A stretch of 64,000 bases of DNA from Pseudomonadales bacterium (GCA_963665315.1 OY762274.1:3162133-3226132), one strand, 5' to 3'; shown: positions 3,372 to 30,083, numbered from the stretch's first letter. The notes: generated from the letters alone by a model not told the origin. A program made the numbers and translations.

Positions 3372-3524
3372 CTCGCGCAGACCCGTTTCAGGATCAATAA
3401 GGTTTCTTTCTTATGAAGCGAACGATACCGACAGCTTTCGGAATTGGCAAGACTGTATCCGGGTTCGTTTCGCTTCAACAGGGCGGCGGAACCGCTATGC
3501 TATGATCCGCTTCGCCTGTTCAGC

Positions 3525-4988
3525 ATGAGCAAACAGCCCATGAAGCCCACCATGCCCGCCTTTCAGGACGCCCGATTGCTCGTCGTCGGCGATGTCATGC
3601 TCGACCGGTACTGGCATGGCAAGGCTTCGCGGATTTCGCCCGAGGCGCCCGTGCCCGTCGTGCGCGTCGGCAAGCGCGAAGACCGGCCGGGCGGCGCCGG
3701 CAACGTTGCCCTGAATATTGCCGCGCTCGGCAGCGCCGCCACCCTCGTCGGCGTCGTCGGCGCGGACGACACCGCCGATGAACTGCGCTCGCGGCTGGAA
3801 GCCGCTGGCGTCTATTGCGAGTTTCAGCAATCCCCGGATAAACCCACGATAACCAAGTTGCGCGTCATCGGGCACCAGCAACAACTCATCCGGCTCGATT
3901 TCGAACAGCGCTTCAATGAGGCCGATACCGAAGGCCTTGCCGGCAAGGTCGCCGGTCTGATGACCGAAGCCCAGGTTCTGCTGCTGTCCGATTACGACAA
4001 GGGCGGAATCGGCGATATCGGGGAACTGATCGCACTCGGCAGGAAACGGAAGATTCCGGTCATCGTCGATCCAAAGGGCAACGACTTTTCGCGTTATCGC
4101 GGCGCGACCCTGATTACGCCGAACCTGGGCGAGTTCGAAGCCATCATGGGCCCGAGCGCCAACGAGACGGAACTCGTGGCGAAAGGCGAGGAACTCATCA
4201 GCCGACTGGAACTCGAGGCCGTGCTCATTACCCGCGGCGAACTCGGCATGACGCTGATTCGGCCGAACGCGCCGGAATTGCATCTGCCGGCGAGAGCGCA
4301 GGAAGTCTACGATGTCACCGGCGCCGGAGACACGGTGATTTCCGTATTGTCGGCGGCGCTGGCGGCGGGGGAAAAGCTGACCGACGCGGTGGTGCTGGCC
4401 AATCTGGCCGCGGGCCTGGTAGTGGGCAAACTGGGCACGGCCGCCATCAGCGCTCCCGAGTTGCGCCGCGCGCTGCTTGCCGAACAGGGCAGCGGCCGGG
4501 GCATCATGAGCGCCGGTCAATTGCGCATCGCCGTGCAGGACGCCCGCGACCACGGCGAACGCATCGTTTTCACCAATGGCTGCTTCGACATCATCCACGC
4601 CGGCCACGTCGGCTACCTCGACGAGGCGCGCAAGCTGGGAGACCGCCTGATCGTCGCGATCAACGACGACGCCTCGGTGCGCAAGCTCAAGGGGCCGGGC
4701 CGCCCGATCAATCCACTCGACCGCCGCCTGCGGGTGCTGGCAGGGCTGGGCGCCGTAGACTGGGTAGTGAGCTTCAGCGAAGACACGCCGGAGGGCCTGC
4801 TGCGCGAATTGCAGCCGGACGTGCTCGTCAAGGGCGGCGATTACACGCTCGACGAAGTGGTAGGCGGCGAACTGGTCAAGTCCTGGGAAGGCGATGTGCG
4901 GGTGCTGGCCTTCATCGACGATTGCTCCACTTCCGCGATCGTCGAGAAAATGCGCCAGGCGGGCGACGAATCGCCGGACCAGGTCTGA
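3525..4988 (+). CDS. hldE: Bifunctional D-beta-D-heptose 7-phosphate kinase / D-beta-D-heptose 1-phosphate adenylyltransferase
   Basis: LLVVGDVMLDRYWHGKASRISPEAPVPVV N-terminal kinase block, DVTGAGDTV ribokinase-family motif, and C-terminal cytidylyltransferase block FTNGCFDIIHAGHVGYL. About 487 aa, as expected. ATG at 3525 was chosen over the track start at 3444. Confidence 0.93.
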   Translation: MSKQPMKPTMPAFQDARLLVVGDVMLDRYWHGKASRISPEAPVPVVRVGKREDRPGGAGNVALNIAALGSAATLVGVVGADDTADELRSRLEAAGVYCEFQQSPDKPTITKLRVIGHQQQLIRLDFEQRFNEADTEGLAGKVAGLMTEAQVLLLSDYDKGGIGDIGELIALGRKRKIPVIVDPKGNDFSRYRGATLITPNLGEFEAIMGPSANETELVAKGEELISRLELEAVLITRGELGMTLIRPNAPELHLPARAQEVYDVTGAGDTVISVLSAALAAGEKLTDAVVLANLAAGLVVGKLGTAAISAPELRRALLAEQGSGRGIMSAGQLRIAVQDARDHGERIVFTNGCFDIIHAGHVGYLDEARKLGDRLIVAINDDASVRKLKGPGRPINPLDRRLRVLAGLGAVDWVVSFSEDTPEGLLRELQPDVLVKGGDYTLDEVVGGELVKSWEGDVRVLAFIDDCSTSAIVEKMRQAGDESPDQV

Positions 4989-6960: not shown

Positions 6961-8181
6961 TCAGTACCAATAAGGCCGCGCCAGCGGCGGTGGGCCGGGC
7001 AGTCCAGGCGGGAGCCGCCCCGCTGTCAGATCCGGGTTCGGGCCCGCTCCGGGCTCGATTCCATCGTCGCGCAGGCTTCGCATCACCATGTCCGCAAGCA
7101 CCGGTGCGAGCGTGAGCTTGGTGGGCCAGGCGACGATGATGTCCTGTTCCGCACTCACGCCGGCATTTTCGGGTCTGCGACCTCCGGGGTTTGCCGGTTC
7201 CGCCCGGTTGATGTCGAGACAGCGCCAGCGAAGATCGTTCAAGTAGACCTCGGGCAGCAAATCGGCGAGGTGACTTTTTGCCACGTCGATTTGCGCGGAG
7301 TCGGTACGCCCTGTTCCGTATTCAGCGAGTTGTCCACCCAGATACCACACCGTCTCACCGACACTATTGACATGGGAAGTAACGGTCAAATGCGGCGTGG
7401 CGCTCAAACCCTCTCCGAGTACATGCATGAAGATCGGCGGTAGCGAAGTTCCGCTGACCGAAACCATCTTGAGCGGCCTCGTCTGGCAGCGGGGGAGCAG
7501 CAGGCCTGCCAGTTCGATCAATCTCTCGTTGCCCTCGCCGGCGCAGAAAATGTAGCGCCGCGCCTTGATCGTCAGCGGTTTCCCCGTCGTGCGCAAGATC
7601 AATTCGCGGCAGGCGGCGGCGCATGTGAACTCGATACAGTTCTCCGAATCGGCGGATTCATGAAATCCGAACGAGTAAATCCGGCTTTGATGCGGCGCAG
7701 CCAGCGCTTCGATCAGCGATGCACCGTCGATCACGAAATCGGGCAGATTGTACACAGTGCCGCGGCCGCGCAATATTTCCGGGATTTCTTCCGGCGCGGC
7801 CGGTTCGGTCTTGCCGGCAATCGCCTTGCTGCCGAGAAAGGCTTTCATGCCGGCGCCGAGGCCGGCGCCCGACCAGAGCTGGAATCGCGGGCTGAGGACC
7901 CGGCAGGCGGACAGGTCGATTTCGCCATGTCCCTCGATGCAGTCACGCCAGCGCCGTGGCATGTCGGCGATCGCCCGGGACGCGCCACCGAAGGCGCCGT
8001 GCAGGGCGTACTTGAGCCCGCCGTGGATGATTCCCTGGGAATTGATCGATTGCCCGCCGCCGAGCCGCTCCCGCTCCAGCAGTATCGCCTGATAGCCTTC
8101 GGCGGTCAGCCGGTTGAGCAGCCATAATCCCGCCACGCCGCCGCCGAATATGACGATGTCAGTTGAATAGCCGGGGTGCAT
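6961..8181 (-). CDS. FAD-dependent oxidoreductase (glycerol-3-phosphate-dehydrogenase-like fold)
   Basis: 406 aa with an N-terminal dinucleotide-binding motif DIVIFGGGVAGLWLLNRL followed by SINSQGIIHGGLKY. The gene is packed 4 nt from the AKR gene. Confidence 0.75.
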   Translation of the reverse strand: MHPGYSTDIVIFGGGVAGLWLLNRLTAEGYQAILLERERLGGGQSINSQGIIHGGLKYALHGAFGGASRAIADMPRRWRDCIEGHGEIDLSACRVLSPRFQLWSGAGLGAGMKAFLGSKAIAGKTEPAAPEEIPEILRGRGTVYNLPDFVIDGASLIEALAAPHQSRIYSFGFHESADSENCIEFTCAAACRELILRTTGKPLTIKARRYIFCAGEGNERLIELAGLLLPRCQTRPLKMVSVSGTSLPPIFMHVLGEGLSATPHLTVTSHVNSVGETVWYLGGQLAEYGTGRTDSAQIDVAKSHLADLLPEVYLNDLRWRCLDINRAEPANPGGRRPENAGVSAEQDIIVAWPTKLTLAPVLADMVMRSLRDDGIEPGAGPNPDLTAGRLPPGLPGPPPLARPYWY

Positions 8182-8281
8182 CCTTTAACTTTTCCCGCAT
8201 TGTGGCCGGGCCGGCTCAAGAATACCGCAGACACAGCGGCAGTTCATGGGGCGTCCGTCCGCGCACGGACCGGCTTCCCCC

Positions 8282-9574
8282 ATGCAGCGAGCGATCTACA
8301 GCATAATTTTCACCCTGGCCCTGCCGTTGATATGGATTCGGCTGCTCTGGCGCTCGCGCAAATCGCCTGCGTACAGGCAGCGAATCGGCGAACGATTCGG
8401 CCGCATCCGGGCGCCGGATTCCCTTGACCCGGCAAGAACCACCATCTGGCTGCATGCGGTATCCGTCGGCGAGAGCATGGCGGCCGCGCCGCTGGTGTCG
8501 GTGCTGCAAGCCGAGATGCCGGAGCTGCAATTCGTCGTCAGCACGATGACTCCCACGGGCGCGGACCGCGTGCGGCAGCAAATGGGAGACAGCGTAATTC
8601 ATCATTATGCGCCCTACGACGCAGCCTGGATCGTGAACCGGTTCCTTGCCGCCTTCCGGCCGAAAATGCTGATCCTGATGGAAACCGAACTTTGGCCGAA
8701 CACCATTCATCTGGCGCACCGCGGGGGATTGAAGATATTGCTGGCGAACGGCCGCCTTTCGGAAAAATCCCTGCGCTCCTATTCCCGCGTCAAGGGCCTT
8801 ACCCGGAACATGTTGCGGCAGGTTCACACGATTTGCGTCCAGGCGGAGGATGACGCCGCGCGATTCCGCAAACTGGGCGCAGAAGCGCCGCGGGTAACGG
8901 GAAGCCTGAAGTTCGCCTTGCATGGACCGGGCGGGCAAACACCGCCGCTTGCCCCGATCGAAGCCTGGAAGGGCGAGCGCGAACTGATCGTCGCGGCCAG
9001 TACGCGGGAAGGCGAGGAACCAGCCGTTTTGCAGGCGTTTCGGCGCTGTCTCGAAAAACACCCGCAATCCAGGTTGCTGATCGTGCCGCGCCACCCGGAG
9101 CGATTCGGGCAGGTGTTCGAACTTTGCTCCGAAGCAGGCTTCGCCACCGGACGACGCAGCCGCGCCGGGAGTCTTGAAGATGAAACCCGGATCGTCATCG
9201 GCGATTCAATGGGCGAGATGATGCAGTATTTCGCCAGCGCCGACATTGCCTTCGTCGGCGGCAGCCTGGTCGATACCGGCTGCCACAACGTGCTCGAACC
9301 GGCCGCCCTCGGATTGCCTGTGATTATCGGCCCTTCCCGTTTCAATTTCGCCGCGGTCTGCGAACTGCTGGAAGATGCCGGCGCCTTGCGCAGCGCGGCG
9401 GACAGCGGAGAGCTTGGCGATACCTGGAATGAACTGCTGGCGGACCGCGACTCGCGCGAGCGGATGGGCGCAGCCGGCAAGGCCGTCATCGCCGCCAATC
9501 AGCAGGCGCTGGAACTGACTCTCGCGGAGATCAGGCGGCTGCTGCAGGCGCCGGATCCATTGCGTCCCGAGTAA
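8282..9574 (+). CDS. waaA: 3-deoxy-D-manno-octulosonic acid (Kdo) transferase
   Basis: N-terminal membrane anchor IYSIIFTLALPLIWIRLLWR, the WLHAVSVGES motif, and a C-terminal GT-B block VGGSLVDTGCHNVLEPAALGLPVI. About 430 aa. ATG at 8282 was chosen. Confidence 0.92.
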   Translation: MQRAIYSIIFTLALPLIWIRLLWRSRKSPAYRQRIGERFGRIRAPDSLDPARTTIWLHAVSVGESMAAAPLVSVLQAEMPELQFVVSTMTPTGADRVRQQMGDSVIHHYAPYDAAWIVNRFLAAFRPKMLILMETELWPNTIHLAHRGGLKILLANGRLSEKSLRSYSRVKGLTRNMLRQVHTICVQAEDDAARFRKLGAEAPRVTGSLKFALHGPGGQTPPLAPIEAWKGERELIVAASTREGEEPAVLQAFRRCLEKHPQSRLLIVPRHPERFGQVFELCSEAGFATGRRSRAGSLEDETRIVIGDSMGEMMQYFASADIAFVGGSLVDTGCHNVLEPAALGLPVIIGPSRFNFAAVCELLEDAGALRSAADSGELGDTWNELLADRDSRERMGAAGKAVIAANQQALELTLAEIRRLLQAPDPLRPE

Positions 9575-10859
9575 AGTTTTCCACGCCATCGGCGGTGACG
9601 CGGACATTGTCCTCGATTCTCACTCCGCCATGGTCGTACAAGGCGTCGACGGCATTCCAGTCGATCAATGCTGCGGCCGGTGACTCGCGCACGGGTTCTA
9701 GCAACAGGGGAATGAAGTAACAACCCGGCTCGACAGTAAACACCATGTCCTCCGCCATGCCGCGTGTGGTGCGCAAGGCGGGAGAATGCTCGGGAGACGG
9801 CGACTGGGCGCCCGCGGCGTCTCGCTGCCGGCCGCCCACGTCGTGAACCTGGACCCCGAGCAGATGTCCGACGCCGTGGGGCATGAACAACTGGGGGATT
9901 TTCTCATCCCGAAGTTGCTCCGAGTCGCCGCGGCAGATCCCGAGCGCAAGCAGCAAATCCGCCAGTTTGCACAGCGCGCTCAGATGCAGATCCACATATT
10001 CCAGTTCCGGCCTGACCTCCCGCACGAGTTCCTGCTGCAATACGTCCATTCCGGCGACCAGGTCCTGGAATAGCGGATTTGCCGTATGTCCGGTCCAGGT
10101 TCGGGTCACATCCGAACAATAGCCGCTGACCCGGCAGCCGGCGTCGATCAGCAGCACTCGCGCCGGATTGGCCAACTGCCGGCGCTTGTGCTGGTAGTGA
10201 AGAATCGCCGACTTCTCGTCGAGCGCGATGATCGGCGTATAAGGCAATTCTTCCTCAATTTGCCGGCAGGCTTCCAGAAAAGCGAGATGGATGTCGAATT
10301 CGCTGCCGCCCGCGAGAAAGCACATGCGGGCGGCCCGGTGGCCGCGAATCGCGAGCCGGTTGGCTGCCCGCATCTGTTCGGTTTCGTACGGGGTCTTGAT
10401 TGCGCGGGCAAAATCGAGCCGGTGGACCAGTGCTTGCGGATTACAATTTTCGGGGCCCACTCCCATGCTCTCCGCGATATCGGGATCCGGCCCCAGGTAC
10501 GCAATGCCCTTGCCGGGCGCCGGTATCTCCCCGACCGCCGCCACCGGCTGCAGTTCCAGGGCTTCACGCCATTGGTCGTCGATGGGAAAGTCCTGCTCGT
10601 ACCAGTAGTCCGCGGGTACGACCTGGTAATAAATGGGCTTGCGCCCGGGCTGGACCAGCAGGAACTGATCGGGCCGGTTGACGGGAAGCCAATGGCCGAA
10701 ATGGCCATAGGCCTGGAAGGGGATCGCGCGGTCATCGGCAAAGTAACAATCCTCGCCGCCGCTGTGCAGGAGCACGCCTTCGAACGCACCGTCAATTGAC
10801 CGCTCGTACAGATCCTGCAAGCAGGAAACATGTTGCGGGTAGCCGTTTGTTTCGTTCAT
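9531..10859 (-). CDS. pepQ: Xaa-Pro dipeptidase (prolidase, M24B)
   Basis: 442 aa, the PepQ length. M24 metal-ligand blocks LIDAGCRVSGYCSDVTRT, HGVGHLLGVQVHD and TVEPGCYF are present. Its 3' end overlaps the waaA 3' end convergently. Confidence 0.9.
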   Translation of the reverse strand: MNETNGYPQHVSCLQDLYERSIDGAFEGVLLHSGGEDCYFADDRAIPFQAYGHFGHWLPVNRPDQFLLVQPGRKPIYYQVVPADYWYEQDFPIDDQWREALELQPVAAVGEIPAPGKGIAYLGPDPDIAESMGVGPENCNPQALVHRLDFARAIKTPYETEQMRAANRLAIRGHRAARMCFLAGGSEFDIHLAFLEACRQIEEELPYTPIIALDEKSAILHYQHKRRQLANPARVLLIDAGCRVSGYCSDVTRTWTGHTANPLFQDLVAGMDVLQQELVREVRPELEYVDLHLSALCKLADLLLALGICRGDSEQLRDEKIPQLFMPHGVGHLLGVQVHDVGGRQRDAAGAQSPSPEHSPALRTTRGMAEDMVFTVEPGCYFIPLLLEPVRESPAAALIDWNAVDALYDHGGVRIEDNVRVTADGVENFTRDAMDPAPAAAA

Positions 10860-11023
10860 TCCCACTCCGGATAGCACAGCCAGCCTGACCGACGTGATTA
10901 TACAGCGTCCGCGGGCGGGGCATGCCTCGCCCGCGCCGCGCCAAATTATTTTTAGTGAAAATTTAGCAGGCTCGCAAACCCTCGCCTACATTAATGCGCA
11001 CTCTCTCAGACCAGGGCGCAATC

Positions 11024-11914
11024 ATGAACCGGCAAGAATCCGAATTTCCCGCGGAACAGGTGGCCGCCGTCTCGGCTTTCCTGCGCGAACCGCGCGGGCG
11101 CACCCGCCGACTGCTCGCGGCAAACCGGAAATGGCTGGCGGAGCTTGAACGCCGGCGCAATAACCGCCTTGCCGGGGCCGATCTGCGGCGGCATGTGGCC
11201 CGCCTGGACTTTCCGCAAGAACAGGGCTTTCGGAAACTGCTCGCGGACGACCCCCGTTCCCGCCTGCTTACGTCCTATCACTTCGGCGACTACATCTATG
11301 GCCTGAACCTGTTGGGGGCTACCGTCACCCCCCACGCGAAGGTCGTGTTCATGTCCCAGGCGCCCGGCAGCGCGGCCTATTTCGCCAACATGAAACTTGC
11401 GTTCGGCGCGAACGCGATGGGACCGGACTCGCAACTGCTTGCGCGGGAGGCGGGCATTGCCGGCCTGGCGCCGCTGCTGCGCCGCCCGGGCGTTCAATTT
11501 ATTACGTTTTGCGATCTGGGCGAACAATTCGGCGGCCGCATACAAGCTGATTTCCTTTTCCGCCAGGCCTGGTTTTCCCGCGGTCCGGCGATGCTGAGCC
11601 TGACCAATCGCATTCCCTTGCTGCCGGTAATCAACTGGTTCGACGGCAAGCGGGAACGGCTCGTACTTGGCGCGCAGATAGAGCCGGAGCGATTCCGCGG
11701 CGAATCGGTGGCCCGGGCGGCCCGGCGCATTACCGCGGAGCTTGTGCGCTTTTTCGAACCGTTCTTCCGCCTCAATCCCGAGCAATGGCGCTATCTCGGC
11801 GCCTTGCCGCTCTATTTCATCCAGGCCGGCGCCGCCGGTGAAATTCAATCAAAGGAGACGACTCATGCAGGTACGCGACAAGACCTTGCAACTGCTCACC
11901 CATTACACGGATAA
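11024..11914 (+). CDS. LpxL/LpxM-family (lipid A biosynthesis-type, PF03279-like) acyltransferase
   Basis: About 297-306 aa, the LpxL size. It has the LLTSYHFGDY block where LpxL has HFGNWE, a later ITFCDLGEQFGG...ADFLFRQAWFSRGPAMLSL...IPLLPV block where LpxL has DQD...V.FFG..A.T..G.A.LA....PV, and a closing PEQWRY. The start is ambiguous between ATG 10994 and ATG 11024. Confidence 0.7.
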   Translation: MNRQESEFPAEQVAAVSAFLREPRGRTRRLLAANRKWLAELERRRNNRLAGADLRRHVARLDFPQEQGFRKLLADDPRSRLLTSYHFGDYIYGLNLLGATVTPHAKVVFMSQAPGSAAYFANMKLAFGANAMGPDSQLLAREAGIAGLAPLLRRPGVQFITFCDLGEQFGGRIQADFLFRQAWFSRGPAMLSLTNRIPLLPVINWFDGKRERLVLGAQIEPERFRGESVARAARRITAELVRFFEPFFRLNPEQWRYLGALPLYFIQAGAAGEIQSKETTHAGTRQDLATAHPLHG

Positions 11915-12107
11915 GGCCGACCGGAAGGCCATCGACATGGACAGCCCGATCGCGGAACTCGAACTCGATTCGCTGGCGATGTTCGAGATCGTATTCGAAC
12001 TCGAGGAATGCTTCGAGGTGGAACTCGACGAAGTGGAACTGGCCGAACTGAAGACCGTGCGTGATCTGGTGGACAGGATCGGGGAAAAGCTCGCCGGTAC
12101 AGACTGA
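11865..12107 (+). CDS. Acyl carrier protein (stand-alone, phosphopantetheine-binding)
   Basis: 80 aa, acidic, with the serine attachment motif ELELDSLAMFEIVFELEE (DSL). An AAGGAG Shine-Dalgarno lies at 11852-11857, 7 nt before the ATG. The gene overlaps the acyltransferase 3' end by about 50 nt. Confidence 0.85.
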   Translation: MQVRDKTLQLLTHYTDKADRKAIDMDSPIAELELDSLAMFEIVFELEECFEVELDEVELAELKTVRDLVDRIGEKLAGTD

Positions 12108-12133
12108 ACGAGAGCCATTCAAGAGATTGCGCC

Positions 12134-13384
12134 ATGGAAAGAAAGCATTTGATCCGGCCGGAAGTACTTCAGCGGAAGTACCGGGCCGCGGAGTCCCGCC
12201 CGCTGGCCGGGGGGAAGAACCTTTTACGCAACGCGGTCCTTGTTCTTGTTGCGATCACCGTAAGCGCCGGCCTGCTGCTGACCATGACTTCCTACAAGGT
12301 TACTGAACAGGCGCCGGGACTGCTCGTCCCCCTCGAAGGCCTGCAAAAACTCTCCATAGGGGGCTCGGGCCGCATGGAAGAAGTGCTGGTCGCGGAAGGC
12401 GAATCCGTTCGGCCCGGCCAGGCGCTGGCGAAAGTTTCCCTGGCTTCGGTCAGCCAGTTTTCGGAGGCCCATGACTTGCAAATCGAGGCCATGCGCAAGC
12501 GACGCGAATCACTGCTTGCGAATTTGCCGCTGCACGAAAAGGAACATGAACTCGCCATACGCCGGAACGGCGATCTGCTGGCTCACTCCGGCGATTCCCT
12601 GCAAACCACGAGGCGGAAACGAGCCCTGTTGCGCGAGCGCATCCGGGTCAGCGAGCGGCATCTGCTGCAGATCGAATCATTGTTCGAAGCGGCCGCGATC
12701 ACCACTTTCCAGTTCGACGAAGCGTATGCCGCGCATCTGCAACTCGAGCAGGAAGCCGCCGAAACCGAACGCCAGGAATCGGAACAGGAAATACGGCTCA
12801 AGGGTCTCGAAGCCGATATGCGGCAGCAGGAACTGACGAAGTCCCGGCTCGACCTTGCCCTGGGCGAAGAAATCGACCAGCTTTCCTCGGAAATCCGGCA
12901 ACTCGAAACCCGGCAGTCGGTGGAGCTGCGCGCCGACAGGGCCGGCCTGGTCGCCACTGTCGCCGTCCGCCCCGGCGACAGTTTTCGTGCCGGACAGCCG
13001 CTGATCTTTCTCGGCCCGGAACATTCCACGCTCACCGCGGAGCTTTACGTCCCTTCCCGGGTGATCGGGAAAGTTACCGCGAACCAGCAGGTACTGCTCA
13101 GTTACGAATCTTTCGACTACCGGGAATACGGCCGTTACCGGGCGACCATCGACAGCGTCGCCGGCGCCCGCCTCGACCCGCGGGAACAATTGCTGCCGCT
13201 CAGCCTGCTGAACGAGCCGGTTTACCGGGTGCGGGCCTCGCTTGAGCGGCAAACCGTCAGCGGCCCGGAAGAACACGGGCTGCTCGCGGGCATGCAGTTT
13301 CAGGCCAATATCGTGACCGATGAGGCGCCCCTGATCGGACTTGTCTTCAAACCCCTGCGATCCCTGCGAGGCCTGATATGGTGA
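12134..13384 (+). CDS. HlyD-family membrane fusion / bacteriocin secretion accessory protein (CvaA-like)
   Basis: 416 aa with an N-terminal LIRPEVLQRK motif, a single TM helix, a lipoyl-like hairpin, a long coiled-coil (residues about 110-260) and a beta-barrel C-terminus. Confidence 0.88.
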   Translation: MERKHLIRPEVLQRKYRAAESRPLAGGKNLLRNAVLVLVAITVSAGLLLTMTSYKVTEQAPGLLVPLEGLQKLSIGGSGRMEEVLVAEGESVRPGQALAKVSLASVSQFSEAHDLQIEAMRKRRESLLANLPLHEKEHELAIRRNGDLLAHSGDSLQTTRRKRALLRERIRVSERHLLQIESLFEAAAITTFQFDEAYAAHLQLEQEAAETERQESEQEIRLKGLEADMRQQELTKSRLDLALGEEIDQLSSEIRQLETRQSVELRADRAGLVATVAVRPGDSFRAGQPLIFLGPEHSTLTAELYVPSRVIGKVTANQQVLLSYESFDYREYGRYRATIDSVAGARLDPREQLLPLSLLNEPVYRVRASLERQTVSGPEEHGLLAGMQFQANIVTDEAPLIGLVFKPLRSLRGLIW

Positions 13385-15465
13385 ATGGACTGTTCGCCCG
13401 GCGCGGCGGATTGCCGATGATTTTCCAGGCCGAAGCCAATGAATGCGGCCTGGCCTGCCTGGCGATGATCGTCAGTTATTTCGGCCGCGATACCGATATC
13501 CGCTCGATCCGCGAAAGCAGCAATCTGCCTGCTTTCGGTTCTTCCCTGAAACATCTGACGAGGGCGGCGGCAGCGGCAGGGCTGAAAGCTCGCTCGCTGA
13601 AACTGGAAATCGGGGACATCAAGCGGCTGAGCACTCCGGCGATCCTGCATTGGGATCTCGACCATTTCGTCGTCCTGAAGAAATGCGGCAGCGGCGGCGT
13701 AGTCGTCCACGACCCGGCGGTGGGCGTAAGAAAATATCCGTTCGATGAACTCGACGGCCATTTCACCGGCATCGCCGTTGAATTCAGTCCGGCCGGCGGC
13801 GTCGGCGGCGATGCGCCCGCGCGCCGCCTGCGCCTGCGCGATCTGATGCGTTTCTCCAGGGGAACCGCGCGCGGCATGACGCTGATCCTGTTGCTGTCGG
13901 CGCTCGTGCAGGTCTGCTCCCTGCTCAGCCCCTTGTACCTGCAACTCGTGATCGATCAGGGTCTGGCGCGCGGCGACATGGATCTGGTGCTCGCCGTAGC
14001 GCTGCTTTTCGGATTGTTAATGCTGGCGAGAATCGCGCTAGGCCATGTGCGGTCGCTGGTGACGATGCAATTCTCGATCCGCCTCGGCTTCGAGATGGTG
14101 TCGGGACTGTTCGAGCATCTCCTGAACCTCCCCCTGCGGTTTTTCGAAAGGCGGGAGATGGGCGATCTGGTTTCGCGTTTCTCTTCCGTGGAGAAGATCA
14201 GCGCGCTGATTTCCCAGGACATGATTACCGTGCTCGTCGACGGCCTGCTGTCCATTCTTTCGCTGATCCTGCTTTACGTCTATTCACCGCTGCTGGCGAC
14301 GATCTGCCTGACTTTCGTCATCGTAGCGATGCTGCTCAAGCTCTGTTCGCTGCCGGGCGAGAAGCTGCGCCGCCAGGAAAGCATCGTGCGCGCGGCCAAA
14401 AGCGAGAGCCGGCTGATGGAGAACATTCGCTGGGCTTCGGTAATCAAGAACTACGCCATCGAAGAACAGCGCAGCGCCGACTGGCAGAACCATTACGTCA
14501 ATTCCGCCAACGCCGGTTACCAGCTCGGTACTTTTCAACTCTGGTTCGGTTCAGGCCAGGGCCTGCTGTTCGGCGTCGAGCAGATCCTGATCATCTTCAT
14601 CGGCGCAAGCCTCATTGCCGGCGGCAGCCTGACCATCGGGCAATTGATGGGCTTCATCTTCCTGAAACAGCATTTCTCGTCTTCGGTACTCGCCATGTTT
14701 CCGAAACTGGCGGAACTGCGCCTCATGCAGCTCGACCTCGAACGCATCGCCGACATCGCCCTCGAGGAAGCCGAGGAAAGCGGCGCCTTGGCCCGCTCGC
14801 TCAGCCGCGCTTTCAGCGGCAAGGTTCGCGGCGAAGGGCTCTGCTTTCGGTATTCGAACGACGAGCGGCCGATTTTCGAAGCATTGGATTTTTCGGTCGA
14901 GCCGGGGGAAACGCTGGTCGTCACCGGCCCGTCCGGCTGTGGCAAATCCACCTTGCTGAAACTGCTCGCAGGACTGGAGAAACCGGCTGCCGGCGCCTTG
15001 TACTACGACGGCATTCCCCTTTCCGCTCTTGGGCTTTCGGCCCTGCGCTCGGCTACCGCGGCGGTGCTGCACAGCGACGGCCTGCTCGCGGGCGACATCG
15101 CCTTCAACATCAATCTCGAAGACGAGCCCCACAACCACGAACGGCTCGAAGACGCCTGCCGCAGGGCATGCATTCTCGACGAGATTCTGGCCCTGCCGCT
15201 CGGATTCAATACCCGCGTCGGCGAACTCGGCAACAGCCTGTCGGCTGGGCAAGTGCAACGGGTCCTGCTTGCCCGGGCGTTGTACAAGCGGCCCAGGCTG
15301 ATTCTGCTCGACGAGAGCCTCGCCTGTCTGAGCGATGCCGTCGCGCAAGAGATTCTCAGGAATATCGGCGAGTTGCGAATCGCCATCGTTCTCGTCACCC
15401 ACAATCCGGCGCTGGCGCGGCTGGGAACGCGGCAGATCAGCCTGCCTGCCGCGCAGGCGGCATGA
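13378..15465 (+). CDS. Peptidase-C39-containing ABC transporter (PCAT; bacteriocin/peptide exporter)
   Basis: 695 aa. The N-terminal C39 domain has an intact catalytic triad context (QAEANECGLACLAMIVSYFG, AILHWDLDHFVVL, VVHDPA). It also has 6 TM helices, Walker A GPSGCGKST, signature LSAGQ and Walker B LILLDE. The ATG overlaps the HlyD stop by 7 nt. Confidence 0.92.
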   Translation: MVNGLFARRGGLPMIFQAEANECGLACLAMIVSYFGRDTDIRSIRESSNLPAFGSSLKHLTRAAAAAGLKARSLKLEIGDIKRLSTPAILHWDLDHFVVLKKCGSGGVVVHDPAVGVRKYPFDELDGHFTGIAVEFSPAGGVGGDAPARRLRLRDLMRFSRGTARGMTLILLLSALVQVCSLLSPLYLQLVIDQGLARGDMDLVLAVALLFGLLMLARIALGHVRSLVTMQFSIRLGFEMVSGLFEHLLNLPLRFFERREMGDLVSRFSSVEKISALISQDMITVLVDGLLSILSLILLYVYSPLLATICLTFVIVAMLLKLCSLPGEKLRRQESIVRAAKSESRLMENIRWASVIKNYAIEEQRSADWQNHYVNSANAGYQLGTFQLWFGSGQGLLFGVEQILIIFIGASLIAGGSLTIGQLMGFIFLKQHFSSSVLAMFPKLAELRLMQLDLERIADIALEEAEESGALARSLSRAFSGKVRGEGLCFRYSNDERPIFEALDFSVEPGETLVVTGPSGCGKSTLLKLLAGLEKPAAGALYYDGIPLSALGLSALRSATAAVLHSDGLLAGDIAFNINLEDEPHNHERLEDACRRACILDEILALPLGFNTRVGELGNSLSAGQVQRVLLARALYKRPRLILLDESLACLSDAVAQEILRNIGELRIAIVLVTHNPALARLGTRQISLPAAQAA

Positions 15466-15501
15466 CGCAAGGAGATTTCCGATTCACGGAGGAACGAGCC
15501 C

Positions 15502-16101
15502 ATGACAGAAGCAAGCAATCCCGCCGCGCGCACCTGGTTTCTGGTAAATCGCGCAAAGATCCAGGGCACGGCCTTCTTTGACGAGGCCTGTCACGACTAT
15601 TTCCAGTTGCGGCTACTCAACTGCCTCAAGGTCTACCATGTGCAACTGCACGCCTATGCGCTGCTGCCGAACGAGGCATGGCTGCTGCTCACGCCGGGCA
15701 TGCCGAAGAGCATGTTCTCCCTGCTCGACTTCGTCAACGGCTGCTATTCGGAGTATTTCAACGAGCGCTTCGAACGTAACATCGCGGTCTTTCAGAACCG
15801 CCCTTTCCTGGCGATCATGGACAGTGCGCAACTCTTCCTCGATTGCCAGAAGATGATCGAACGCTGGCCATTCGCCAGCGGCGCCGTCGATCACCCCGGC
15901 CTGTACCGCTGGTCCAGCTACGCGGTCAACGCTTTCGGCGGCCGCCCCCGTTTCCTCACGCGCCACCGCTGGTTCGAACAATACATCGCCGCCGCCGAAA
16001 GCCCCATGGAGCGCTATCGCGAGTTCATCGCCCAACCTTTCGAACCCGCCCACCTCGCCGAACTCGAAAAGCGCCTCCTGCCCCCGGGGAATTTACCGTG
16101 A
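15502..16101 (+). CDS. IS200/Y1-transposase-like (RayT/COG1943-like) protein with a degenerate HUH motif
   Basis: 199 aa. HAYALLPNEAWLLLTP aligns with the family block HAYVLM(P/T)NHVHLLLTP, but both HUH histidines are replaced (E and W). The C-terminal YRWSSY tyrosine block is retained. Confidence 0.6.
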   Translation: MTEASNPAARTWFLVNRAKIQGTAFFDEACHDYFQLRLLNCLKVYHVQLHAYALLPNEAWLLLTPGMPKSMFSLLDFVNGCYSEYFNERFERNIAVFQNRPFLAIMDSAQLFLDCQKMIERWPFASGAVDHPGLYRWSSYAVNAFGGRPRFLTRHRWFEQYIAAAESPMERYREFIAQPFEPAHLAELEKRLLPPGNLP

Positions 16102-16527
16102 TTTCTTGCCTTACCGTGGTTCCGGAGCTATGTTGATTCCCCAATCGAATGGAGTTCACGAGCATGGCGACCATCGAACGGCGCAAACGTTACGGAAATT
16201 CAAGCAGCCCTGCTCAGCAAGGTCCGGGGGAGAACGAGCGTTCGCCCGAAAAAGCCGCTGGGACCGGGAAAGGGTCCGAGAGTCAGGAAGCGGATTCCGA
16301 CAACATCGTGGAAATATTCCGGAAATACTTCGGACCGTCCAACGGAGTGGACCTTGAACTACCGCCGCGCGAACCCATGCGGGACCCGCCGACCTTCGAC
16401 TGAGTTGGGAACGTCCGTATTGGTGGATCCAAGTAATTCGCCTCTAAAACACGTTTCCGAACATCAGCAGATTCGATGTAGCTACCGAGGGGAAAGTTTA
16501 CGCAGCTCCTACCTATCGAACTTTCAA

Positions 16528-16610: not shown

Positions 16611-16952
16611 ATGTCAAAGAAGAATACGCTAATTCAGGCTCCGCCCTATGCGGTCGAACAGGCAATCGAGCGCTTGGGCGCGAACCTCCGTACGGCCCGG
16701 TTACGCCGTAACCTGACGATCAAGGATGTGGCCGACAAAATCGGAACCGGCCCTCGCGTCGTATCCGATGCCGAGCAGGGAAAGATCACAACTGGAATTG
16801 CGGCGTATACCGCTCTTCTTTGGACCTACGATCTGCTCGGCCCGATGGAACAACTCGCGGACCCGACCGCGGATGAGACCGGACTTGCCATGTCCATGCG
16901 CCGTAAGCGCGCGCGCGCCGAAAAGCCAGAGGAACTCGACAATGAATTCTAG
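16611..16952 (+). CDS. hipB: XRE-family HTH antitoxin HipB
   Basis: 113 aa. The HTH block LRTARLRRNLTIKDVADKIGTGPRVVSDAEQG is present. Its stop overlaps the hipA ATG by 11 nt. Confidence 0.85.
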   Translation: MSKKNTLIQAPPYAVEQAIERLGANLRTARLRRNLTIKDVADKIGTGPRVVSDAEQGKITTGIAAYTALLWTYDLLGPMEQLADPTADETGLAMSMRRKRARAEKPEELDNEF

Positions 16953-18210
16953 AGACTGCTTTGTTTACATCGTCCTGCCCGGAGGAACCAAATTCGTCAC
17001 GGCAGGACGATACCGTCGCACGATAGACCGCCATGGCATCGTCACGGGCCGCTTTATATACGGCAAGAGCTATCTTGCCCGCGACAACGCCGTGCCGATC
17101 GACCCGATCGAGCTCAAGCTCGGCACAAAAACCCATGAGACGAATCTGCTCAAGGGAATGTTTGGTTCTCTTCGCGATGCGAGCCCCGATCATTGGGGCC
17201 GACGTGTCATTGAACGGCATTTGGGATCGCCGGATCCCGATGAGATGGACTACCTGCTGCGTTCGCCAGACGACCGCGCCGGCGCTCTGGGTTTCGGCCT
17301 GAACAAAGAACCCCCGGATCCCAGAACGGAGTTCAATCGCAAACTCGATCTCGGCAAGCTGCAAGAGTTCGCGGATGCCGTCATCCAGGATGAAGAATTG
17401 CCGAAAGGCGCCGATGCCGAGCAAGCACAGGAACTCATGCTTGCGGGGACCTCGATGGGTGGCGCCCGCCCCAAGGCGGTCGTCGAAGACGATGGCGCAC
17501 TATGGATCGCAAAGTTCAACCGACCTGACGACAAGTGGAACCATGCGAAAGTCGAGCGGGCGATGCTGGAGCTGGCGCATGCCTGCGGCATTCACAGAAC
17601 AGAAAGCAAACTGACTATGATCGGCGACCGTGACGCCCTGCTGGTAAAACGGTTCGACCGGGTGGGAACAAACAAAGGCTACCGGCGCGCGCGCATGCTG
17701 AGCGCGCTCACGCTCCTGCGCGCGGAAGATAGCCACCAGGATCGCAGCAAGTGGTCCTATGTGCTTTTAGCCGAAGAGTTGCGTCGCATTTCGGCCGATC
17801 CTGAAGCGGACGCGGCAGAGCTGTTCAGGCGAATGTGCTTCAATGCACTGATCACAAATAACGACGACCACCCGCGCAATCATGCCGTGCTTGCGATCGA
17901 AAACCACTGGAGGCTATCACCGGCCTATGATCTGGTCCCGGCTATGCCGATAAGTGTCGAACGCCGAGACCTGGCATTGGAATGCGGCGACATGGGTCGC
18001 TACGCGCATGCGGAAAACTTGCTTTCGCAGTCAGTACGCTTTTTGCTGAAAGCCGACGACGCCCGTGCCATCGTGGACAATATAGAGTGTATCGTGCGGG
18101 AACGCTGGTATGAATTCTGCCGCCGTGAAGGCGTCAGCGACAAAGACTGCGAAACGATCCGGCCGGCTTTCGGCTACGACGGTTTTCGACTGGACCTGGC
18201 CGCAGCGTGA
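16942..18210 (+). CDS. hipA: Type II toxin HipA serine/threonine kinase
   Basis: 422 aa. N-terminal couple_hipA block (RDASPDHWGRRVIE), GTSMGGARPKA P-loop-like block, catalytic NNDDHPRNHA and PAYDLVP. ATG at 16942 was chosen rather than the upstream out-of-context track start. Confidence 0.9.
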   Translation: MNSRDCFVYIVLPGGTKFVTAGRYRRTIDRHGIVTGRFIYGKSYLARDNAVPIDPIELKLGTKTHETNLLKGMFGSLRDASPDHWGRRVIERHLGSPDPDEMDYLLRSPDDRAGALGFGLNKEPPDPRTEFNRKLDLGKLQEFADAVIQDEELPKGADAEQAQELMLAGTSMGGARPKAVVEDDGALWIAKFNRPDDKWNHAKVERAMLELAHACGIHRTESKLTMIGDRDALLVKRFDRVGTNKGYRRARMLSALTLLRAEDSHQDRSKWSYVLLAEELRRISADPEADAAELFRRMCFNALITNNDDHPRNHAVLAIENHWRLSPAYDLVPAMPISVERRDLALECGDMGRYAHAENLLSQSVRFLLKADDARAIVDNIECIVRERWYEFCRREGVSDKDCETIRPAFGYDGFRLDLAAA

Positions 18211-18305
18211 CTTTTTCAGGCCGTACGAACCGAACATGCCAAACGAAATTGACACCATGCGGCAAACTGAATAGCCTGCCCGAAAAGCGAAGGGAGAGTT
18301 TCGGA

Positions 18306-19319
18306 ATGATCAGAAAAGCTTTTGCCTTGATGAGCTTGTCCGCGTTCTGCGCCGTTTCGAGTGCGCAGGAATACGAGATTCCTTATACCGAGTGGGGCGT
18401 GCCTGATTTCCAGGGTGTGTGGAAGCACGCCACCGTAATGCCGTTTGAGCGGCCGGAAGGACTCGGCGAGCAGGGTACCTATTCCGAAGAAGAGGTGCTG
18501 GCGCTCGAACGCAACGTGCAAGAGCGATTCGATGCGGACAACGAGCCGCTCGACCCGAACCGGCCGCCGCCCGAAGTGGCCGAATCGTTGCCTCCGATCG
18601 GCAACTACGATCTGTTCTGGCGCGACGACGCGCAGTTCCTGCCGACGATCAATGGCGAATTCCGTACTTCGGCGATCGTCGAACCCGCGAACGGGCGCCT
18701 CCCCGAAGTGCTTCCGGAAGCCCGCGAGCGCCTGCTGGCCGCGCGGGGCGGGCGCCAGGGCCGCACCAACGACGGCCCTGAAGGGCGCGGCCTCGGTGAA
18801 CGCTGCCTGGTAGGCTTCGGCAACCTGTCCGGGCCGGTAATGAGTCCGGTCATCTACAACAGTCATTTGCAGTTCGTGCAATCTCCGGGCTATGTGACCA
18901 TTGTCGCGGAAATGGTGCACGACGCGCGCATCATCAGGATCGGAGGTGAACGCAATCAGGCCGCCGAGGCCCAGCGTAAATGGATGGGAGATTCCATCGG
19001 CCGCTGGGAAGGCGACACGCTGGTAGTGGAAACACAGTATTTCAACGACTGGCACAGCCTTCGCGGCCTGCCCGTCGACAATATCACCATCACGGAAACC
19101 TTCCGCCGCGAATCTGACTACAAATTGATCTACGGCTTCAGGGTCAGCGATCCGAGCGTTTTCGCCGACGAATTCTACGGCGAATATCCGCTGTCACGTA
19201 TTGACGAACCGATCTACGAGTACGCCTGCCACGAAGGCAACTACGGCATGTTCGGCATATTGCAGGGCGCCAGGCGGCTTGAGGTGGTGTCCGAATTGGA
19301 AACCGGCGGCGAGAACTGA
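18306..19319 (+). CDS. Secreted conserved hypothetical protein (paralog of 59093-60103)
   Basis: Signal peptide MIRKAFALMSLSAFCAVSSAQ. It shares the blocks RWEGDTLVV, DEPIYEYACHEGNYGM and GILQGARRLE with the 59093-60103 product. I do not recognise the family. Confidence 0.75.
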   Translation: MIRKAFALMSLSAFCAVSSAQEYEIPYTEWGVPDFQGVWKHATVMPFERPEGLGEQGTYSEEEVLALERNVQERFDADNEPLDPNRPPPEVAESLPPIGNYDLFWRDDAQFLPTINGEFRTSAIVEPANGRLPEVLPEARERLLAARGGRQGRTNDGPEGRGLGERCLVGFGNLSGPVMSPVIYNSHLQFVQSPGYVTIVAEMVHDARIIRIGGERNQAAEAQRKWMGDSIGRWEGDTLVVETQYFNDWHSLRGLPVDNITITETFRRESDYKLIYGFRVSDPSVFADEFYGEYPLSRIDEPIYEYACHEGNYGMFGILQGARRLEVVSELETGGEN

Positions 19320-23508: not shown

Positions 23509-24361
23509 GCTCGGAGTACACCGCGCTCAGGAAACGTTCCGGATCGCCGTAACGGTCGTTCCAGGCAGCGGTCGGATCGGCCGCCGCGACCTGGTCGTAA
23601 TCCATTCCTTGACCGATCATGCTCTCCACGGAGTTTGCAGTCTCGATGATCATGTCGCGGAACTCCATGACGTCGGCGCGGGAAGAAACCCCGCCATGGC
23701 CTGGTACGACCCGCGTATCGGGGCCTGCGCGTCCGACGAGCATGCCGAGCGCCGCGATGGTGCCGTCGAGAGTGCCGCCGTTGGCAAGGTCGATAAACGG
23801 GAAAGAAGTGGTGCGAAACACGTCACCCGCGTGAATCACGTCCGACCCACGGAAATGAACGAAGCTGTCGCCGTCGGTATGGGCCGGCGGCACGGCGAAC
23901 ACATGCACTTCCTCGCCGTTGAGGTGGACCGTGATATTGCCGTCATAGGTCAGCACGGGCAGAGCCAGACCGGATGTCTGCTCGGCCAGCCGCAGTCTCA
24001 CTTCGTCCCGGGCGAGAATGTCGATGCCCATGCGGCCGAGGTTTTCGTTGCCGCCGGTATGGTCGCCATGCACGTGGGTGTTGATGACGAAGCGGATATC
24101 GCCGTCGTTGAGTTCGGCGATGGCCGCTACGATGCGCTCGGTCAGGGGCGCGAACTGATCGTCGATCATGACCACGCCGTCGTCGCCGACGGACAGGCCG
24201 ATATTGCCGCCGGCGCCTTGCAGGTAGTACATGTTGCCGGCCACGTGATGCGGGATGATTTCAACATCGCTGAAATCCTGCTGCGCCTGCGTCGGCAGAA
24301 CGAACAGCATTGCCGCGGGAAGGGCCAGCGCGACCACGCTTGAACTGATGGAACGATTCAC
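23495..24361 (-). CDS. Exported MBL-fold metallo-hydrolase
   Basis: 288 aa with a signal peptide and the zinc-binding motif NTHVHGDHTGGN (HxHxDH). GTG start. Confidence 0.85.
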   Translation of the reverse strand: MNRSISSSVVALALPAAMLFVLPTQAQQDFSDVEIIPHHVAGNMYYLQGAGGNIGLSVGDDGVVMIDDQFAPLTERIVAAIAELNDGDIRFVINTHVHGDHTGGNENLGRMGIDILARDEVRLRLAEQTSGLALPVLTYDGNITVHLNGEEVHVFAVPPAHTDGDSFVHFRGSDVIHAGDVFRTTSFPFIDLANGGTLDGTIAALGMLVGRAGPDTRVVPGHGGVSSRADVMEFRDMIIETANSVESMIGQGMDYDQVAAADPTAAWNDRYGDPERFLSAVYSELGGQ

Positions 24362-24480
24362 GATTAACCCCCATGTCAGGATCCGGTACGGGTCATTGAG
24401 AATAAAGGATGCCGTATATGCTGTCTATTGCGCCCGCTCCGCTCCGCCGCGGAACCGAATACTCCCCCTTGGGGGGAGTC

Positions 24481-24499
24481 AAAACCGCAAAGCGGTTTT
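24481..24499. terminator. Symmetric (bidirectional-type) Rho-independent terminator hairpin
   Basis: AAAACCGC-aaa-GCGGTTTT: a perfect 8-bp stem flanked by A and T runs on both strands, 51 nt past the stop of the large surface-protein gene. Confidence 0.65.
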
Positions 24500-24549
24500 G
24501 GTGGGGGCGGGGGCCGGGGCAAGCCCGCGCCCCCGGGAACGATCGTCCG

Positions 24550-29445: not shown

Positions 29446-29466
29446 GGCCGACGCGCGCGCACGAGC

Positions 29467-29682
29467 CCTGCGGTCCTGCGGTCCTGCGGTCCTGCGGTCC
29501 TGCGGTCCTGCGGTCCTGCGGTCCTGCGGTCCTGCGGTCCTGCGATCCTGCGATCCTGCGGTCCTGCGGTCCTGCGGTCCTGCGGTCCTGCGGTCCTGCG
29601 GTCCTGCGGTCCTGCGGTCCTGCGGTCCTGCGGTCCTGCGGTCCTGCGGTCCTGCGGTCCTGCGGTCCTGCGGTCCTGCGGT
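29467..29682. repeat. 8-bp microsatellite (CCTGCGGT)27, i.e. (ACCGCAGG)n on the coding strand
   Basis: 27 head-to-tail units counted, 25 perfect and 2 with G>A (29539-29554). The tract ends 21 nt upstream of ATG 29445 of the giant surface protein. All reading frames are open through the tract. Confidence 0.97.
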
Positions 29683-30083
29683 CAATCACACGATCGGATT
29701 CCCTCGCGGTTCCCGTCAAGCCCAACATCGAACCGATCCCGAAAAAATCCCGCGACCCGCGGTCCAAAATCCTCATGCGATCTCCCCCCGTCCAAATCCA
29801 TAATCGCCGGCCGCGAAGCGACCGCCGCCGGCCCGAATCCGGGCAGCCCGACGAAATTTGGACGGAATCTACAACATCTCTTCCCGCAAGACAATCGAAA
29901 ATTCGCCCCGCTTGACCGAGCTGGCCCGAGGCTCCGTTCACCATCGCTTTCTTATTGGAAAACGCTTTGCGGCCGGTTCAGGCCTTTTCGAGCGGAAGCG
30001 AACCATGTGTCGCCCGACAATGTAATCGGAATGCGATTCTGCTAATTTCGGGAGGAACTCCGGAGAGGCGGTACATATTCCTG

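Follow-up and report, generated by a model that had tools for sequence, protein, structure and literature searches.

What does an acyltransferase with its own carrier protein do in one operon with a peptide exporter when no gene for an exported peptide is in sight? This question is raised by a plus-strand gene cluster in a stretch of 64,000 nucleotides from a Pseudomonadales bacterium (GCA_963665315.1 OY762274.1:3162133-3226132; the whole stretch is called the window, and positions are counted from its first letter). The cluster, called the cassette, joins an acyltransferase (AT), an acyl carrier protein (ACP), an HlyD-family adaptor and a peptidase-containing ABC transporter (PCAT). A preliminary description of this DNA had presented these as four genes packed into one unit; the reading frames and spacings were borne out, and a fifth gene, g5, had been overlooked. 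The unit extends from 11024 to 16101:

11024-11914, plus strand: acyltransferase (AT), 296 aa, PatA/LpxM (LABLAT) fold
11865-12107, plus strand: acyl carrier protein (ACP), 80 aa, DSL phosphopantetheine site, PF00550
12134-13384, plus strand: HlyD-family membrane fusion protein, type I secretion adaptor, 416 aa
13378-15465, plus strand: peptidase-containing ABC transporter (PCAT), 695 aa
15502-16101, plus strand: g5, 199 aa, divergent Y1-transposase/RAYT-like protein

The answer that we favour, with a probability of about 0.45, is that the cassette would serve the tailoring and export of a fatty-acylated double-glycine peptide, in a form reduced here by loss of a FAAL (fatty acyl-AMP ligase) and with the cargo gene unlinked.

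The five genes form one co-inherited unit

The genes of the cassette are closely spaced. The 3′ end of AT overlaps ACP by 50 nt (ACP ATG at 11865, stop at 12107), the gap from ACP to HlyD is 26 nt, HlyD and PCAT overlap by 7 nt, and 36 nt separate PCAT from g5. The AT open reading frame (ORF) in full covers 10994-11914 and has in-frame ATG codons at 10994 and 11024; since most homologues are 296 aa long, the likely start is the ATG at 11024. A start at 10994 would prefix the AT with MRTLSDQGAI, an extension with which several close homologues are annotated. Its MRTL resembles the start of a microcin leader without the GG motif, a resemblance that we judged coincidental. Terminator-like sites within the operon were not in excess (8 observed, 7.4 expected), and promoter and terminator scans of the operon were uninformative.

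Gene order was compared in a genome scan with one genome per species, which gave 48 loci, nearly all of them labelled Pseudohongiella, Pseudohongiellaceae or Pseudomonadales metagenome-assembled genomes (MAGs). The order AT-(ACP)-HlyD-PCAT-g5 was kept in approximately 45 of the 48, down to 32% AT identity, and several of the junctions were 4-nt start/stop overlaps. The OY762706.1 locus was 99% identical to the window, and three further metagenome contigs showed the same gene order. When compared with four relatives, all five genes had dN/dS values of 0.09-0.5 and are under purifying selection. Conservation of the neighbourhood, which the preliminary description had named as a point to check, therefore holds for the co-occurrence of AT and PCAT in the species loci and also outside the family. 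The tight or overlapping spacings, the lack of a terminator excess, the conserved order and the dN/dS values establish AT-ACP-HlyD-PCAT-g5 as one co-inherited five-gene unit. Throughout Pseudohongiellaceae the cassette has a chromosomal location and is inherited vertically; waaA always adjoins it there and hldE is nearby, as had been noted for the window (8246-9574 and 3444-4988, respectively).

Three loci have decayed, each differently: L029 retains only AT and ACP, L040 retains AT, an ACP remnant and g5, and L052 holds fragments of AT and PCAT together with g5. Parts of the cassette can thus be lost independently.

The exporter and the carrier protein retain their catalytic residues

Profile hidden Markov models (HMMs) identified Peptidase_C39 (113 bits), ABC_membrane (113 bits) and ABC_tran (89 bits) in the PCAT, HlyD_3 (48 bits) and HlyD_D23 (30 bits) in the adaptor and PP-binding PF00550 (41 bits) in the ACP, all above the Pfam cut-offs. 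The C39 peptidase occupies PCAT residues 13-138 (nt 13414-13791), the transmembrane domain residues 168-434 and the nucleotide-binding domain residues 501-648. The motifs ECGLAC, HWDLDHF and HDP are present. In 42 full-length orthologues Gln17, Cys23, His96, Asp112, the Walker A and B motifs and LSAGQ were invariant or nearly so, and the Cys/His/Asp triad of C39, whose context had been described as intact, was strictly invariant; Gln, Cys, His and Asp are also kept in the sister cassettes described below. The PCAT thus combines a C39 domain holding the catalytic Cys, His and Asp and the oxyanion Gln with a six-helix transmembrane domain and a nucleotide-binding domain carrying Walker A/B and signature motifs. 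The adaptor has the barrel-sandwich and lipoyl domains and the N-terminal transmembrane helix of a membrane fusion protein; it scored 93 bits against TIGR01843 (type_I_hlyD), under the subfamily cut-off of 209, and 30 bits against the DevB model. Conservation of these residues and domains establishes the PCAT as an intact exporter of the predicted active-peptidase type, with its adaptor.

The DSL serine of the ACP was invariant in 56 cassette ACPs. All AcpP-type equivalogs scored below their cut-offs against the ACP, which is why we class it as an orphan ACP. A profile search found the ACP in 38 of the 48 species loci, and in the remaining 10 species AT abuts HlyD with a 4-nt overlap. The earlier designation of the ACP as dedicated holds as far as its presence and its invariant serine are concerned, and fails in the 10 species that have lost it.

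The acyltransferase forms a separate clade of the lipid-A-acyltransferase superfamily

The one profile that fell short among those proposed earlier was PF03279 (Lip_A_acyltrans), which matched the AT at 20.0 bits where the cut-off is 22.3, in an alignment confined to 87 C-terminal residues (182-268). No match to the NCBIfam LpxL, LpxM or LpxP models was found at E ≤ 0.01; of the NCBIfam models only the PatA equivalog matched, with 22 bits where the cut-off is 209. An AlphaFold2 (AF2) model of the AT, built on the family alignment, had a pLDDT of 86. Foldseek searches with this model gave PatA, the mycobacterial phosphatidylinositol mannoside (PIM) acyltransferase, as the best match (E 2e-9, TM 0.56-0.64) and LpxM as the next (E 1e-7), with 12-17% identity in these structural matches. 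The overall fold and a conserved His with an acidic partner place the AT in the LABLAT/GPAT fold.

The catalytic block reads H86-F-G-D-Y-I, with Ile at position +5, so the HX4D/E motif is absent. The HFGDY that had been noticed in place of HFGNWE is a family feature: His86, Gly88 and Asp89 were invariant in the cassette family together with Asp164, and His86 and Asp164 were invariant in 133 full-length family representatives. The AT family profile aligned to PatA at E 4e-6, the region of the C-terminal PEQW motif included, and this partial alignment put Asp164 within about 1 residue of PatA Glu200. In PatA the catalytic His126 has Glu200 as its partner (PMC8519569). We infer that Asp164 is the residue-level equivalent of this Glu200, and His86/Asp164 is the candidate catalytic pair of the AT. 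The N-terminus is charged (MNRQESEFPAEQ...) and the AF2 model shows amphipathic helices only; judged from both, the AT appears to have no N-terminal membrane anchor. No match to HlyC was found for the AT.

In its PF03279 and NCBIfam scores, its missing HX4D/E motif and its apparent lack of an anchor, the AT thus differs from LpxL/LpxM on each feature compared. Since it has no LpxL/LpxM/LpxP match and no apparent N-terminal anchor, the AT is a separate clade of the lipid-A-acyltransferase superfamily, and none of the features tested marks it as a lipid A enzyme. The suspicion that its acceptor might not be lipid A gains from the missing motif, the lack of NCBIfam matches and the rank of PatA above LpxM in Foldseek. 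The same NCBIfam, structural and motif evidence places the AT outside LpxL/LpxM/LpxXL, the position that would have spoken against a peptide-related role.

Word-indexed protein searches with the AT got no further than the Pseudohongiella clade, and approximately 45 close protein clusters were found in an index of 5.8 billion proteins. The wider family came to light only when 1.84 billion representatives were searched exhaustively with a profile: 97 relatives had E<1e-30, and 682 had E<1e-3. No plasmid-borne homologues were found for either AT type.

Related cassettes outside the family contain a fatty acyl-AMP ligase

Genomic context was looked up for five distant members of the AT family (82-151 bits):

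L056: FAAL-ACP-AT-HlyD-PCAT
L057: HlyD adjoining AT
L058: AT-HlyD-PCAT
L059: AT-HlyD-PCAT-89 aa-232 aa
L060: HlyD-PCAT-AT-69 aa-68 aa

HlyD, PCAT or both lay beside AT in all five of these non-Pseudohongiella contexts. A metagenome scan with the sister subfamily gave 22 loci, every one of which followed the order FAAL-ACP-AT-HlyD-PCAT to the extent of its contig; overall this order was seen in 23 loci. The proteins of the window share 25-33% (AT), 34-51% (ACP), 26-33% (HlyD) and 40-42% (PCAT) identity with those of the sister cassettes, and the adjacency of AT, HlyD and PCAT is held in unrelated genomic contexts with GC contents of 48-70%.

The best PDB and NCBIfam matches of the ligase in the sister cassettes were FAALs, and the donor should therefore be a fatty acid. 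An AurF-like di-iron oxygenase is usually encoded just upstream, divergently transcribed from the FAAL gene:

L062, 6912-7886, minus strand: AurF-like oxygenase gene
L066, 6658-7611, minus strand: AurF-like oxygenase gene
L080, 6842-7846, minus strand: AurF-like oxygenase gene

Conservation of this oxygenase beside the FAAL suggests that the fatty acyl chain is oxidized or desaturated in the sister cassettes. The most divergent locus of the genome scan, L049 from a Pseudomonadales MAG, has the order AurF-FAAL-AT-ACP-HlyD-PCAT at 7126-13978 and lies outside the waaA-pepQ context. On its gene content L049 is best read as an intermediate between the Pseudohongiella form and the sister cassettes with a FAAL. 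Because it holds both the FAAL and the oxygenase, the Pseudohongiellaceae form appears to be a reduced derivative, which would have lost these two genes, and in some species the ACP too, and gained g5. Neither L049 nor any of the sister cassettes has the linkage to waaA, which is thus local synteny.

Double-glycine precursors lie beside five related cassettes

The preliminary description had found no small ORF with a double-glycine leader between 10860 and 16600. We searched from all ORF starts of the window and of 55 Pseudohongiellaceae loci with two regular expressions and a leader HMM, and the negative result was extended: no double-glycine-leader ORF was found in that interval, in the whole 64-kb window or in the 55 related loci (up to 10 kb of flank). 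All matches were pieces from within waaA, YbjQ and similar genes. Products of the cassette itself were also considered as cargo and rejected, as none has a conserved GG-type leader. The ACP is in addition missing from 10 species, the N-termini of AT and HlyD are excluded with it (the 'LAGG' of HlyD is an ordinary family feature), and the 'AG' that precedes the first g5 strand is likewise ordinary in its family.

Outside the family, small ORFs with canonical double-glycine leaders were found beside five independent cassettes:

L059, precursor leader: MRTLTFDEIGMISGG
L060, precursor leader: MRTLTAEEIEHVSGA, with a colicin-V-like Gly-rich core
L062, precursor leader: MRLLTVEEIGIVSGG
L080, precursor leader: MREISDFEMEQVSGG
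L056, precursor leader: MQQLTAEQVVKVSGNG

The precursor cores are hydrophobic and Gly/Ala-rich, and several have Ser-rich tails. At L059, L060 and L062, three of these five loci, the precursor gene is followed on its 3′ side by a gene for a small membrane protein; these proteins are candidates and could be immunity factors. The predicted cargo in these relatives is a microcin-like peptide.

A fatty-acylated peptide is the favoured product

In the reading that we favour, the operon would be the Pseudohongiellaceae version of a widespread, uncharacterised cassette for a double-glycine-leader peptide. The holo-ACP would carry a fatty acyl chain, loaded in the relatives by the dedicated FAAL; with the ligase lost here, loading would come from fatty-acid synthesis or from an unlinked ligase. 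The soluble AT, with His86 as the general base and Asp164 assisting, would pass this chain to a ribosomal precursor peptide, onto a hydroxyl or an amine. As expected from what is known of these families, the C39 domain of the PCAT would then cut off the double-glycine leader, and the ABC transporter and HlyD, together with an unlinked TolC-type channel, would export the acylated peptide. In the Pseudohongiellaceae lineage the precursor gene would be unlinked to the cassette, and g5, an inactivated RAYT-like protein, would be a lineage-specific accessory and possibly a regulator. A product of the peptide type is favoured because the relatives add a FAAL and five of them hold double-glycine precursors. 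The conserved co-occurrence, the FAAL and these precursors also support the proposal of the preliminary description that an AT not directed at lipid A stands in the tailoring position of a PCAT system and makes an acylated product. We suggest more tentatively that these cassettes represent a new class of fatty-acylated, PCAT-exported microcin-like peptides made with a PatA/LpxM-fold AT and a FAAL-loaded ACP, of which Pseudohongiellaceae would have a core-genome form with an unlinked precursor and an exapted dead RAYT.

Several points weigh against a peptide product. We know of no PatA/LpxM-fold enzyme that acylates a peptide; the known members acylate sugars or lipid hydroxyls. The window has no FAAL, the ACP is dispensable in 10 species, and the double-glycine precursor that the reading calls for was not found in the window or in its family. 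Outside Pseudohongiella a precursor was seen in only 5 of approximately 15 cassettes with usable flanks, and the precursor cores have no obvious common acceptor motif except the Ser-rich C-termini. The case for peptide acylation is built throughout on gene neighbourhood and homology.

The main rival is acylation of an envelope lipid, which we consider unlikely. The carrier and AT would acylate lipid A, the lipopolysaccharide (LPS) core or a membrane glycolipid by the logic of AlmE-AlmF-AlmG, and the modification could protect the producer from a membrane-active peptide exported by the PCAT, or could be a lineage-specific LPS trait. AlmEFG modifies lipid A and confers peptide resistance (PMC4278540), and the ligase-carrier-LABLAT order of the sister cassettes matches it. 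All characterised enzymes of the AT fold act on glycolipids, no linked peptide gene exists in the window or in the Pseudohongiellaceae loci, and in this family the cassette always stands beside waaA with hldE nearby; the first two of these points add to the case against a peptide product. However, the waaA linkage is gone in L049 and the sister cassettes, the ligase is of the fatty acyl-AMP type and not a DltA/AlmE-type amino-acid ligase, and a separate candidate immunity gene follows the precursor in three of the five loci. The AT, moreover, has no NCBIfam LpxL/M/P match, lacks HX4D/E and is modelled without a membrane anchor. A second lipid-based explanation, to which we give little credence, is that the ABC/HlyD pump expels a non-peptide product of AT and ACP, either an acylated lipid or a small molecule. 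DevBCA exports heterocyst glycolipids, and the aryl-polyene cluster has an acyltransferase and an exporter; here no cargo gene lies in the window, and the set of FAAL, ACP, AurF-like oxygenase and AT looks like a small pathway for a lipid. This explanation conflicts with the canonical precursors beside five cassettes and with the fit of HlyD to the type I secretion model (93 bits against 30 for DevB), and in its pure form it fails because the C39 residues, invariant in 42 orthologues and kept in the sister cassettes, are hard to explain without a leader peptide substrate.

Two further explanations are very improbable. The AT could be an ordinary lipid A late acyltransferase, that is, an LpxL/LpxM/LpxXL paralogue with an AcpXL-like ACP, encoded beside an unrelated bacteriocin exporter. 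It has weak similarity to PF03279, waaA and hldE are nearby, and AcpXL/LpxXL is a precedent for a dedicated ACP. The PF03279 score is nevertheless under the cut-off, no LpxL/M/P equivalog matches, AT-HlyD-PCAT adjacency is found in unrelated contexts over GC contents of 48-70%, and AT and HlyD are joined by 4-nt start/stop overlaps where the ACP is lost; the co-occurrence of AT and PCAT largely refutes this explanation. The cassette could also be a decaying relic, an orphaned exporter that has lost its precursor and is retained by synteny alone, as might be thought from the missing precursor, from the loss of the FAAL and the AurF-like gene relative to L049, from the ACP losses and from the clear decay of L029, L040 and L052. 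Purifying selection on the five genes (dN/dS 0.09-0.5) contradicts this, and over approximately 45 species AT, ACP and PCAT show no change in their catalytic residues.

Comparison with known systems

In its working the cassette appears to come closest to PCAT systems of the class II microcin or RaxX type that include a tailoring enzyme. In class II microcin export (CvaA/CvaB for colicin V, MceG/MceH in class IIb) a PCAT with an active C39 domain and an HlyD-type adaptor are likewise used, TolC is supplied from elsewhere and the tailoring enzyme is encoded with the exporter; the leaders of the MRTLT..E...VSGG type in the relatives, the Gly/Ala-rich hydrophobic peptides and the small membrane proteins that follow them are further likenesses. 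In contrast to a class II microcin cluster, the window has the PCAT and the membrane fusion protein with no linked precursor or immunity gene, and tailoring would be carried out by an ACP and an AT of PatA/LpxM fold (with a FAAL in the relatives) and not by siderophore-attachment or HlyC-like enzymes. The cassette here is also a family-wide chromosomal locus and not an accessory island. The order in which a tailoring enzyme precedes the membrane fusion protein and the PCAT is that of raxX-raxST-raxA-raxB of Xanthomonas; this parallel had been drawn in the preliminary description and agrees with the gene order, and several PCAT orthologues are labelled RaxB in the JGI annotation. RaxST, however, is a tyrosine sulfotransferase with its substrate gene raxX adjacent, whereas the cassette has an AT, and its substrate gene would be unlinked.

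The logic of the cassette also resembles HlyC-dependent acylation before type I secretion, in which acyl-ACP-dependent acylation of a protein is followed by exit through an ABC transporter, a membrane fusion protein and TolC. The AT, of PatA fold and without a match to HlyC, and the intact C39 domain set it apart from RTX activation and secretion by HlyCABD: HlyC has an unrelated acyltransferase fold (TAAT), the C39-like domain of HlyB is inactive, the secretion signal of HlyA is C-terminal and uncleaved, and that system has no dedicated ACP. Lipidated RiPPs (ribosomal peptides modified after translation; lipolanthines, selidamides and goadvionins) consist of a ribosomal peptide and a fatty acyl chain. 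Their acyltransferases are of the GNAT type, and they are not PCAT/HlyD microcin-type systems; to our knowledge, none of them uses a PatA/LpxM-fold enzyme. Because the AT fold differs from those of HlyC and the GNATs, no precursor or immunity gene is linked and C39 is active, unlike that of HlyB, the cassette belongs to none of the class II microcin, RaxX-type or HlyC families.

With PatA and LpxM/LpxL the AT shares the fold and a general-base His whose acidic partner lies at a distance (PatA His126/Glu200, PMC8519569). It differs from them in its low identity (12-17%), in scores far under the curated cut-offs, in the absence of HX4D/E and, in the model, of a membrane anchor, and in having a peptide exporter as its genomic partner. 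The sister cassettes share with AlmE-AlmF-AlmG of Vibrio cholerae the succession of an adenylating ligase, a small carrier and a divergent transferase of the lipid-A-acyltransferase family (PMC4278540). AlmE, however, loads glycine, whereas the relatives have a FAAL; AlmEFG comes without an exporter, and the window has no ligase. A 2026 paper on Serratia class II microcins describes AMP-binding and HlyC-like acyltransferase genes near microcins, not of the PatA/LpxM fold. In the literature that we searched we found no description of the cassette or of a lipid-A-acyltransferase-family enzyme coupled to a PCAT, in keeping with the earlier statement that the locus matched no characterised system.

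The fifth gene, the upstream palindrome and other features of the window

The g5 gene is conserved directly after PCAT in 44 loci and overlaps it by 4 nt in several; its dN/dS is 0.14-0.28. The window protein had no Pfam match. The orthologues share the motifs G-x-T-Y-F, L-H-A-Y-x-L-L, Y-x-x-Y-F-N-x-R-F, Q-K-x-I-E and H-P-G-x-Y-x-W-S-S-Y, and PF01797 matched weakly in 5 of 32 members (best E 5e-5) with most of the model covered. At the HUH position g5 reads E-x-W/L, and the position of the catalytic Tyr is variable (Met in the window), so that g5 is not a functional member of the Y1/RAYT HUH transposases and resembles their fold family. The g5 profile matched no PDB sequence, and a single-sequence AF2 model was unusable (pLDDT 40); the fold assignment is tentative. 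From its motifs g5 looks like a catalytically dead RAYT/Y1 transposase-like protein in which the HUH motif and the catalytic Tyr are gone. It has no GG leader and is missing from the sister cassettes, and it is possibly a lineage-specific accessory with a regulatory role.

A palindrome lies between the divergently transcribed pepQ and AT genes:

10910-10935, no strand assigned: GC-rich palindrome with 13-nt arms in the divergent pepQ/AT promoter region, candidate operator

It has a perfect centre without a spacer, and its arms are 92% complementary. In L006-L011 a palindrome stands at the same position, with different arm sequences and retained complementarity. Since these close relatives keep the symmetry despite the changed arms, the palindrome suggests an operator or hairpin, a candidate binding site; a link to the cassette is speculation.

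The upstream flank of the cassette contains hldE, an aminotransferase, an aldo-keto reductase, a DAO oxidoreductase, waaA and pepQ, and the downstream flank a HipB/HipA module and malate synthase G. Just 3′ of g5 an 84-aa ORF (16149-16403) had no Pfam match; we read its C-terminus as similar to VapB/antitoxin tails, and it may be a toxin-antitoxin remnant. The HipB-like helix-turn-helix protein and HipA kinase toxin module (16611-18210) is inserted between g5 and a gene for a 338-aa periplasmic protein (18303-19319). Among the examined loci this insertion is common only to the 99%-identical L005, and other close relatives with the 338-aa gene have no intervening hipA. The 338-aa gene was rejected as a member of the unit, as its product has a Sec-type signal peptide and it is adjacent solely in the close clade. 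A PADLOC scan for defence systems gave generic ABC ATPase matches only.

Elsewhere in the window, a secreted Calx-beta/He_PIG protein of 1631 aa is encoded on the minus strand (24550-29445). This giant protein was considered as a type I secretion substrate and rejected because it has a Sec signal peptide. Its gene start is immediately preceded, on the 5′ side, by 27 tandem copies of the octamer CCTGCGGT (29467-29683, 99% identical); the octamer period is not a multiple of three, so the array could be a slipped-strand phase-variation switch. An island of approximately 70% G+C (24001-30000, against approximately 62% in the rest of the window) coincides with this adhesin-like gene. An 877-aa protein on the minus strand (738-3371) has PSCyt1, PSCyt2 and PSD1 domains; in Pfam PSCyt1 is named 'Planctomycete cytochrome C', and the PSCyt2 and PSD1 models are DUF1549 and DUF1553.

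Significance of the cassette

The cassette is conserved, widespread and directly testable, and its acylation chemistry is a prediction from sequence. L059, L060 and L062 are complete cassettes with precursor and candidate immunity genes and could be expressed directly. Whichever reading holds, annotation pipelines should drop the label 'lipid A biosynthesis acyltransferase' for the AT proteins. If the acceptor is a peptide, the cassette would represent new enzymology of peptide lipidation, in which an acyltransferase of the lipid A/PIM type acts on a ribosomal peptide. This would be the first peptide substrate for the PatA/LpxM lipid-enzyme fold and would add a tailoring class to the Gram-negative microcins, which are mined as narrow-spectrum antimicrobials. 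If the acceptor is a lipid, envelope remodelling would be tied to peptide export, and the cassette would be an envelope trait that defines this lineage, a common marine family.

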